Source of the DNA: an uncultured Bacteroidia bacterium
GTDB taxonomy: Bacteria; Bacteroidota; Bacteroidia; Bacteroidales; ML635J-15
Length of the DNA: 64,000 nucleotides
NCBI GenBank assembly: GCA_902791865.1
Contig: CADAXK010000008.1
Span: forward strand, 9,198-73,197
Direction: 5' to 3'
Part shown: piece after piece, positions 62,261 through 62,325 of the stretch
Position numbering within the stretch: the first letter of the stretch is position 1
Layout: each line of letters begins with the position of its first letter
Translations under genes and position numbers: made by a program
Notes under the pieces: generated by a model
What the model was told of the DNA's origin: nothing
The model's database searches: none
Seen by the model: the letters and a program-made list of their open reading frames with translations, nothing else

Positions 62261-62325
62261 TGTACGTTTATGTACAATAATGTACGTTTATGCACAATAA
62301 TGCACGATAATGCACGATAATGCAC
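62261..62325. repeat. 6.5 tandem 10-bp units TG[TC]AC[GA][TA]T[TA]A (helical-phase repeat)
   Basis: tgtacgttta tgtacaataa tgtacgttta tgcacaataa tgcacgataa tgcacgataa tgcac, in exact 10-nt register. Confidence 0.85.

Follow-up and report, generated by a model that had tools for sequence, protein, structure and literature searches.

A helically phased decamer array beside the putative late promoter of an apparently undescribed family of Bacteroidota virus-like elements

Head-to-tail polymerisation of small winged-helix proteins along direct repeats is well described, both for the Xis/Cox/Apl proteins and for BldC, gp1 and Gp36 (PMC7498355; PMC3936717; PMC5859096; PMC11963761), and by comparison with them the DNA array reported here is most likely a regulatory device of this known type, in an apparently undescribed family of Bacteroidota viruses. 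The array lies in an integrated, virus-like element of an uncultured Bacteroidia bacterium, within a stretch of 64,000 nucleotides of contig CADAXK010000008.1 (hereafter the window; coordinates count from its first letter), and consists of seven direct repeats of 10 bp placed ahead of a long operon on the minus strand. Comparison of the array and its surroundings among relatives gives a somewhat better than even case that it would serve as a cooperative head-to-tail binding site for the element's own small winged-helix protein, controlling the putative late promoter.

Head-to-tail binding on direct repeats in described systems

Apl of phage 186, Cox of phage P2 and Xis of lambda are recombination directionality factors, small single-domain winged-helix proteins that combine cooperative head-to-tail binding with DNA bending, spreading and promoter control; Xis and Apl bind direct repeats about one helical turn apart, and for Apl of phage 186 there are five repeats with a spacing of 10-11 bp at the attachment (att) site, as well as seven operators numbered at pR-pL (PMC7498355; PMC3936717). 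The geometry of the window array is the same, with seven to eight direct repeats at exactly 10 bp that abut a promoter-like box. However, the described proteins also act at att sites beside the integrase, whereas the window array is situated mid-element, 9.6 kb from the integrase/tRNA junction. A recombination-directionality role, with the array as an att arm site, was rejected on this distance from the integrase (52688-53809) and because no copy of the motif occurs near the integrase. The small helix-turn-helix (HTH) protein encoded throughout the element family, which is our candidate binder, showed no significant similarity to Cox or Apl when the sequences were compared.

Streptomyces BldC, gp1 of phage GIL01 and Gp36 of mycobacteriophage D29 belong to the MerR-like winged-helix proteins, measure about 60-70 aa, lack a dimerisation domain and form head-to-tail oligomers on variable numbers of promoter direct repeats, each with an AT-rich part and a G/C contact (PMC5859096; PMC11511902; PMC12266134). 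Against PDB sequences the family HTH profile aligns over its full length with MerR-like domains, the winged-helix domain of RacA scoring E=5e-4 and BldC E=0.06 (not significant), with lambda gpNu1 at E 0.03. GIL01 also resembles the probable lifestyle of our element in being a temperate, tailless, membrane-containing phage. The differences lie in the promoters and in the sites: gp1 and Gp36 repress early or general promoters, while the window array stands at a late structural operon, and it is longer and more regular (7-8 units, strict 10 bp) than the sites of BldC, gp1 and Gp36.

In the tailless membrane phage PM2, P13 and P14 are activators of late promoters. Together with gp6 of GIL01 they offer a likeness in circuit layout, in that a small phage regulator from an earlier operon switches on a single long late operon. 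At promoter P3 of GIL01, gp6 binds a site that overlaps the -35 region and is centred at -43.5 (PMC6182141); the promoter-proximal units of the window array would fall in the same position. However, gp6 is a LexA-like protein acting on one palindrome, without tandem direct repeats, and has no homology to the family HTH. Overall, the array has the site geometry of head-to-tail winged-helix binding, and the class of the candidate protein is established only in part.

The array, its register and its conservation

A sequence-only reading of the window had described an exact TGYAC repeat in 10-nt phase at 62261-62325. Rereading the same letters on the plus strand gives tgtacgttta tgtacaataa tgtacgttta tgcacaataa tgcacgataa tgcacgataa tgcac, and Tandem Repeats Finder (TRF) over 62255-62328 returns a period of 10 plus a period-20 super-repeat. 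While the strict 10-nt register of the core stands, its length does not: the invariant core is a hexamer rather than five bases, GTRCAT on the operon strand and ATGYAC on the plus strand, and each copy is followed by a 4-base AT-rich spacer with a pyrimidine last. The features at this site, with the evidence for each in brackets, are:

62256..62325, minus strand: array of seven head-to-tail 10-bp units, each a GTRCAT core with a WWWY spacer (sequence, TRF, shuffles, lag-10 identity, relatives)
62246..62255, minus strand: degenerate promoter-proximal unit GGGACATCGC, its GGACAT core shifted by 1 nt (kept in the close relatives L001-L005)
62326..62333, minus strand: degenerate distal unit CCGGCATT (GGCATC, GACATC or GGCATT in relatives)
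62223..62230, minus strand: -7 box CAATTTTG of the putative late promoter, a match to nAnnTTTG (the sole such match between array and ATG)

On the operon strand, from 62325 down to 62256, the units read GTGCATTATC GTGCATTATC GTGCATTATT GTGCATAAAC GTACATTATT GTACATAAAC GTACATAAAC, with cores at 62260, 62270, 62280, 62290, 62300, 62310 and 62320; all seven share one orientation and the exact 10-bp spacing. The degenerate proximal unit resembles the CGACAT core of the array in a distant relative, L217. The whole array sits in an intergenic stretch of 510 bp (62194-62704) and spans the positions 63-132 nt upstream of the ATG at 62193, with 62 nt between its end and the ATG, in agreement with the 70-130 nt or so first proposed.

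Adjacent in-phase core pairs number six in the window, against a mean of 0.055 and a maximum of one in 200 mononucleotide shuffles. Self-identity at lag 10 is 0.82 across the array, compared with 0.15-0.25 at the neighbouring lags in 7-13 (z=10.6), and none of 200 shuffles reaches this value. The hexamer itself shows no enrichment in the window as a whole (71 found vs 72 expected), so the signal resides in clustering and phase; a chance origin of the array is excluded. A period of 10 bp is no multiple of 3 and the array cannot encode a peptide repeat, so that the initial description of it as neither random nor coding is borne out. An Rfam scan of the intergenic region gave no match to an RNA family. 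In-phase GTRCAT pairs are confined to one site each in the window, in L001, in L002 and in the more distant L029.

Close relatives of this element are few: the 195-aa putative capsid protein of the operon has only three close clusters in a collection of 5.8 billion proteins. Five contigs (L001-L005) carry the same intergenic stretch at about 95% identity to the window, and the six close copies, the window included, carry the array in five versions, of 7 or 8 units each. That core and phase should be conserved among relatives had been set beforehand as a test of the array, and both are invariant here: all 43 units have G, T, C, A and T at core positions 1, 2, 4, 5 and 6 in exact 10-bp register, while core position 3 (A or G), the spacers (TATT, TATC, AAAC, TTTT and TTTC; four types in the window, five across the close copies) and the copy number vary. 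The array thus appears to turn over by gain, loss and shuffling of units, with core and phase held.

Pattern scans for GTRCAT-N4 x4 through IMG/VR, GTDB genomes and JGI metagenomes gave almost only unrelated perfect decamer microsatellites; one match, L029, is a true distant relative, with 37% identity to the window group in the packaging ATPase and 27% in the capsid-like protein. Its array is composed of five GTGCATTATC units, identical to two of the window units, and two GTGTATTATC units, and is placed after a terminator and 72 nt ahead of a gene for a small transmembrane protein, which is followed by the capsid-like gene. The contigs resembling L029 all end short of the array, and copy-number variation could not be seen there. 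Separately, four unrelated large phage contigs (L006, L008 and L012 from IMG/VR, 24-160 kb, and L007) carry perfect CTGTACATAA x7 or CTGTGCATTA x5, units very close to those of the window array, and have no protein in common with the element.

Since L029 was picked up by its repeat it is a biased sample. The ATPase, with no repeat used in the selection, led to twelve further loci, and the loci obtained in this way (L206-L218, L226) are unbiased. A uniform test was applied to 17 loci, taking the best 70-nt segment of lag-10 self-identity in the 330 nt before the first late gene and comparing it with 200 shuffles. Fifteen of the 17 loci, from 13 of about 15 lineages, show values of 0.60-0.98 that peak sharply at lag 10, and in none do any of the 200 shuffles come up to the observed value. 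A phased array at the same place is therefore a feature of the wider family, as the sequence-only reading would have it; the motif is not, for it differs by lineage. Despite the shared site, the repeat units are unrelated between lineages:

L206 and L216: TGTGGCAATA (TGTKGCAATA)
L218: TGTRTA-type
L208: ATGTTGCCAA
L210: ATACCCGACA, with no A-tract
L211: CCCACCAAAN, beside an 8-bp repeat
L212: AT-rich, ATAACTWAT
L215: GTCCGTTTAT/CTCCGACAAT
L217: CGACAWAAAA
L226: YGMCAT+WWWWC

Judged from these sequences, what is conserved across the family is an architecture, namely a set of five to eight direct repeats spaced by one helical turn and located at this single site, and not a sequence. Such lineage-by-lineage replacement of the motif is as expected for sites that co-evolve with a binder encoded by the element.

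It seems quite improbable that the array acts without a dedicated protein, either as a curved, UP-element-like region or as a neutral decamer microsatellite made by slippage. Perfect GTRCAT decamer microsatellites are common in unrelated genomes, the copy number of 7 or 8 and the 20-bp super-repeat suggest slippage or unequal exchange, phased A-tracts are present in some arrays (CGACAAAAAA in L217; AAA in three of the window units), and a similar phased A-rich array is found upstream of genes for single-stranded DNA-binding proteins (SSB) elsewhere in the window. However, the arrays of unrelated genomes are perfect, in contrast to the heterogeneous units of the window, and drift would not spare the core that is kept in all 43 units of the close copies. 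With respect to curvature, L029 carries GTGCATTATC in identical form and without an A-tract at 37% identity in the ATPase, and the unit of L210 likewise has none, so that curvature is not the conserved property. Position and 10-bp phase, moreover, survive complete motif turnover in 13 of about 15 lineages.

The late promoter, the candidate binder and the direction of control

Following work by Bayley and colleagues in 2000, Bacteroidota promoters are said to use a -7 box with the consensus TAnnTTTG. A sigma-70 promoter scan is uninformative for Bacteroidota and this consensus was used instead. The putative -7 box of the window starts 25 nt after the last full unit of the array, and the distance from array to box is 24-25 nt in both the window and L029. 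In eight of the nine lineages measured, the interval from the array to the start codon contains exactly one nAnnTTTG, which follows the last clear unit by 13-29 nt; the ninth, L210, has no such box in that interval. Degenerate units run on towards the -7 box, and the array therefore reaches the expected position of the -33 element and extends about 70 nt further upstream. Inspection of these promoters by eye found no canonical TTTG at the expected -33 distance, which is a weak argument given that the -33 element is poorly conserved. Wherever cargo genes have been inserted (differing toxin-antitoxin pairs in the window, L001, L002, L029 and L211), they lie between the HTH gene and the array and never between the array and the promoter. 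In a clade represented by L212 (7270-7300), L213 (7040-7070) and L215 (7100-7130) the leaders of the late genes are long (110-210 nt) and contain by eye an apparent conserved hairpin, e.g., tgtaggtggcgtaacccacc, which may be a further, post-transcriptional control point.

A homologous HTH gene of 56-75 aa is present in every lineage, just after the ATPase gene or a few genes later. In L001, which covers the part of the element beyond the window end, there are a DUF3854/DUF5906 primase-helicase, a scaffold-like coiled-coil protein and a 194-aa P-loop ATPase, and the small HTH gene at 6806-6994 overlaps the stop codon of the ATPase gene. The protein follows the pattern K-x-ELA-x3-G-V-x3-T-L-x-K-W-L ... 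F-T-P-x-Q-V and gives weak matches to DUF4248, MerR, HTH_17 and excisionase/regulator families. It diverges faster than the ATPase (L001 and L216 are 71% identical in the ATPase vs 23% in the HTH), and the arrays diverge fast too; the HTH alignment was too divergent to serve in a search for loci, which found nothing.

The residues of the recognition helix loosely track the array motif, in a manner that is suggestive. L206 and L216 share both the recognition region GWCAATLTKW and the motif TGTKGCAATA, and L218, with GWSVQTLVKW, has a related TGT-type unit. L001 (INRRTLDRW), L217 (VDRRTLKNW) and L029 (VSRRTFIKW) have RRT and RCAT-type cores in common across the deepest split of the family, and L207 and L226 (I/V-RTF) have units of GCAW/ACAT type. 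Besides the 10-bp array that follows its HTH gene, L215 has a tract of seven 7-bp repeats (TCAACTA/TAAACTA) at 6573-6622, between the ATPase stop and the HTH start codons.

From these comparisons, which support the sequence-only reading of the site as a cooperative protein-binding array on one helix face, we infer the following mechanism. Each 10-bp unit would present one GTRCAT core and one AT-rich spacer, with all cores on one face of the helix and pointing in the same direction; small winged-helix monomers would bind one per unit and touch head to tail, and the resulting cooperative filament would span about -35 to about -110 relative to the promoter. As binder we propose the MerR-like, DUF4248-like protein of 56-75 aa whose gene comes just after that of the packaging ATPase, and the filament would set the activity of the late promoter, which serves the virion and lysis genes. 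With respect to the direction of the effect, we lean towards activation in the manner of a transcriptional cascade: the gene for the regulator stands last in the preceding (morphogenesis) operon, as a cascade would have it; the inspected promoters lack a canonical -33 TTTG as judged by eye; the array is upstream of the -7 box and not over it; and late activators overlapping -35 are known in tailless membrane phages, e.g., GIL01 gp6 at -43.5 (PMC6182141). Almost equally likely is repression, through spreading over the -33 region, since most characterised proteins of such a type, including Apl, gp1 and Gp36, repress (PMC7498355; PMC11511902; PMC12266134).

This predominance of repressors is one of several points that weigh against the mechanism as proposed. 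Absence or free phase of the repeat in otherwise conserved relatives occurs in one clear case, L209, which is without an array and has inverted TGTAAAC repeats elsewhere, and in two marginal ones, L207 and L213, the latter with three copies at 20-bp spacing. The -7 box of the window matches seven of the eight positions of TAnnTTTG, and the spacing allows some freedom, as only about 10 nt part the array from the homologous box in L217. For the element of the window itself, the HTH gene falls beyond the window end and its presence is taken from L001, whose capsid-like protein is 99% identical, and from L002. The co-variation of HTH and motif is anecdotal, with about 15 lineages, and has exceptions: in L211 an RT-type helix goes with a different motif, and overall identity between the HTH proteins of L001 and L029 is only 30%. 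There is also a likeness of the HTH to DNA-binding domains from small terminase subunits, and its gene adjoins that of the packaging ATPase. A phased AAACGA array upstream of the host-side SSB genes indicates that such arrays are not confined to the element, so that binding by a host factor, or a feature common upstream of promoters, is conceivable.

The host-side array bears on a further explanation, that the array is bound by a host factor in place of a protein encoded by the element, to which we give only a slim chance. At 40590-40640 of the window, a phased (A)TAAACGA repeat with 4-5 copies and a period of about 10-11 bp is situated about 30 nt upstream of a GACTTTTG box; downstream of it, four tandem SSB paralogues are interleaved with small unknown genes (40727-43635). 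The (A)TAAACGA unit has AAACG in common with the GTACATAAAC units of the array (read into the G that follows) and with the units of L217, and the distance to the -7 box is similar, as a shared host factor would have it. However, the motifs differ completely among related elements, all of which are apparently from Bacteroidota, and this suits a co-evolving binder of the element better than a conserved host factor.

Resemblance to small terminase subunits raises the possibility of a packaging (pac-like) site, at which the HTH protein would act like such a subunit, assembling on the repeats and handing the genome to a B204/P9-type ATPase. The layout at lambda cosB (bound by gpNu1) and at the pac sites of small terminase subunits is similar in some respects, with a MerR-like winged-helix domain on repeated sites beside the first late gene and the packaging ATPase gene, and the matches of the family HTH to such domains are weak. 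In most lineages the HTH gene comes immediately after that of the ATPase; the array occurs once per genome and is lineage-specific, as a pac site should be; and the HTH has weak matches to small-terminase domains (Pfam Terminase_5 at 23.6 bits with a cutoff of 20.3, and PHROG 141 and 57, besides gpNu1). A confident structure model of the ATPase (predicted local distance difference test, pLDDT, of 92) has as its best fold match the genome-packaging NTPase B204 of the Sulfolobus turreted icosahedral viruses (STIV2/STIV), over the full length and with a template modelling (TM) score of 0.73 and an E of 1e-8, ranking ahead of HerA, Zot and VirB4 in the fold search. Yet an ATPase of this B204/FtsK-HerA type differs from the terminase of the lambda system, which has a nuclease domain, and we know of no cis-acting packaging site or factor resembling a small terminase subunit (TerS) for viruses with a B204-type ATPase. 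The terminase matches cover only the generic HTH and fall mostly below threshold, and when cargo inserts, the array stays with the promoter: in L001 it is 2.6 kb from the HTH gene and 25 nt from the -7 box. We therefore regard packaging as unlikely to be the function of the site, and the more specific proposal, that array and winged-helix protein form a packaging-specificity module (a pac site with a TerS-like adaptor) of an undescribed family of temperate, tailless, membrane-type Bacteroidota viruses, as distinctly unlikely. If it were true, the rapid turnover of the motif would keep co-resident relatives from packaging each other's DNA, and the module would to our knowledge be the first cis-acting genome-recognition signal described for packaging machinery of the PRD1/STIV type.

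The same pair of ATPase and HTH genes also brings to mind partition systems. In ParR-parC of plasmid R1 and in the heptad arrays of omega, ten or so tandem repeats around a promoter are bound cooperatively by a small protein, and the order of a small NTPase gene, a small DNA-binding gene and promoter repeats recalls partition cassettes of type Ib or type II. A centromere-like site for an excised, plasmid-like form of the element, comparable to parC or the omega operator sites, is nonetheless a very improbable reading of the array. ParR and omega are ribbon-helix-helix proteins that serve partition NTPases on periods of 11 or 7 bp, and neither was found for the window array, where the DNA-binding candidate is an HTH. 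The ATPase has a classical Walker A motif (GxNGTGKTT) and not the deviant one of ParA, its predicted fold is B204-like, and its gene is part of a morphogenesis operon together with that of the scaffold-like coiled-coil protein.

The element and the other repeats of the window

Returning to the binding site proposed for the element's own winged-helix protein, the genes around it give the context in which such control would operate. The relevant features are, in order along the window:

52476-52563: tRNA-Ser(cga) adjoining the integrase
52688..53809, plus strand: tyrosine integrase at the far end of the element
53806..62193, minus strand: long operon, presumed to be controlled from the putative late promoter beside the array
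54373-54984, minus strand: NlpC/P60 protein of the operon
56249-56758, minus strand: glucosaminidase of the operon
56804-57259, minus strand: PG_binding_3 (peptidoglycan-binding) protein of the operon
61376..61963, minus strand: 195-aa protein conserved in the family, putative major capsid protein (homologues in relatives)
62023..62193, minus strand: 56-aa protein with a single transmembrane helix, encoded by the first operon gene
62345..62690, both strands: second repeat family, TTGTAGAA/TTCTACAA, with 13 TGTAG/CTACA cores (TRF, core counts)
62646..62665, minus strand: intrinsic terminator with an 8-bp stem and then a T run, which ends the upstream cargo transcription unit
62705..63914, minus strand: variable cargo slot with a 266-aa unknown protein and a 171-aa protein with a SocA/Panacea antitoxin domain

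The integrase and tRNA-Ser(cga) at the far end indicate an integrated element, and the operon also holds about a dozen small proteins with N-terminal transmembrane helices. Its B204-like ATPase, lysis enzymes, integrase and numerous small membrane proteins suggest a virus-like element of a temperate, tailless and membrane-containing kind. The obvious candidate for the capsid protein is the 195-aa protein; its AlphaFold2 model is poor (pLDDT 49, shallow alignment), and the fold search returned nothing significant, with faint jelly-roll-type matches only. A gene for a transmembrane protein of 40-56 aa precedes the capsid-like gene in every relative. A terminator directly ahead of the array is found in L029, L206, L208, L211, L212, L213, L215 and L226. 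The slot between HTH gene and array is a hotspot for cargo (toxin-antitoxin or defence) that differs in each relative, with DUF4160/DUF2442 in L001 (7701-8283), a PIN-domain gene in L002 (2293-2903) and a toxin-antitoxin-like gene pair in L029 (2149-2648).

The family (L001, L029, L206-L218 and L226) is made up of integrated or free Bacteroidota elements of about 20-25 kb, with a conserved gene order that runs from the coiled-coil scaffold-like protein through two small proteins, the B204-like packaging ATPase and the small HTH to the small transmembrane protein, a capsid-like protein of 190-230 aa, many transmembrane proteins and a lysin. The replication modules vary across the family (DUF5906, DnaG-type primase or VapE-like). 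Public phage records contained no match to the element, the 195-aa protein as a probe found nothing in GTDB genomes or IMG/VR, and an alignment of the clade-A ATPases as a query found nothing in IMG/VR. A search with the ATPase returned 439 proteins at E<=1e-5, many of them from contigs of 19-26 kb, which makes its family a large one; six IMG/VR contigs carry it as well. A literature search found no description of this group of Bacteroidota elements, which is apparently an undescribed group of viruses or elements of 20-25 kb.

Within the intergenic region that holds the array, the second repeat family forms two direct clusters of TTGTAGAA with 9-bp spacing, one of two full copies plus a degenerate TAGAT and the other of three copies; they flank an AT-rich stretch of 50 nt (62512-62560), and inverted copies occur elsewhere. 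The equivalent regions of L029, L206, L208 and L217 do not contain the TGTAG family. At 3780-4020 of L001, in the space that separates the DUF5906 primase-helicase gene from the morphogenesis operon, TGTAGC(G/A)C is repeated about 16 times with an 11-bp period, in three or four clusters, each ending in TGTAAACAT; these copies share the TGTAG core with the TTGTAGAA repeats of the window, a pairing that recalls the ori and crr of phage P4. The TGTAG family at 62345-62690 looks like an origin, or like a second binding locus for the replication protein.

These repeats bear on the suggestion that the decamer array itself consists of origin iterons bound by the DUF5906-type primase-helicase of the element, comparable to the P4 alpha ori/crr or the Rep origins of Staphylococcus aureus pathogenicity islands (SaPI). 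The element does encode a DUF3854/DUF5906 primase-helicase, and the TTGTAGAA repeats around an AT-rich stretch give the same intergenic region an origin-like appearance. We consider this very unlikely for the array, however: in L001 it is the different, TGTAG-type repeat that occupies the region by the replication gene, which also goes against the initiator site entertained in the sequence-only reading, and GTRCAT pairs occur nowhere else. L029, L206, L208, L210 and L215 keep the late-promoter array without a TGTAG module there, and the array persists alongside other replication proteins (the DnaG-type Zn-ribbon primases of L206 and L218), while that of L207, which has a VapE-like protein, is marginal.

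Arrays of 10-11 bp are also present in a second intergenic region of L208 (6487-6531), L209 (2855-2889) and L215 (3949-3978). Other intergenic tandem arrays in the window, at 17038-17282, 22676-22862 and 24990-25031, comprise GCAATGATTTGCACCGATT x6 (19 bp), TCCATTG x6 and the related ATTGCAATAATTTGCCCCG x2, the last upstream of a second large minus-strand gene; they may be shared regulatory sites of paralogous genes.

The array offers a testable handle on how virion and lysis genes are switched in widespread, apparently undescribed Bacteroidota elements of 20-25 kb. It names one short DNA array, one candidate protein of 60 aa and one promoter, and the lineages that seem to have exchanged motif and recognition helix together are natural swaps. 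If the packaging reading were true, it would open the unsolved question of how viral packaging ATPases of the FtsK/HerA type recognise their genomes. An architecture that is kept (7±1 direct repeats, 10-bp phase, position at the promoter) while the sequence turns over is, in addition, useful for finding operators in metagenomic viruses.

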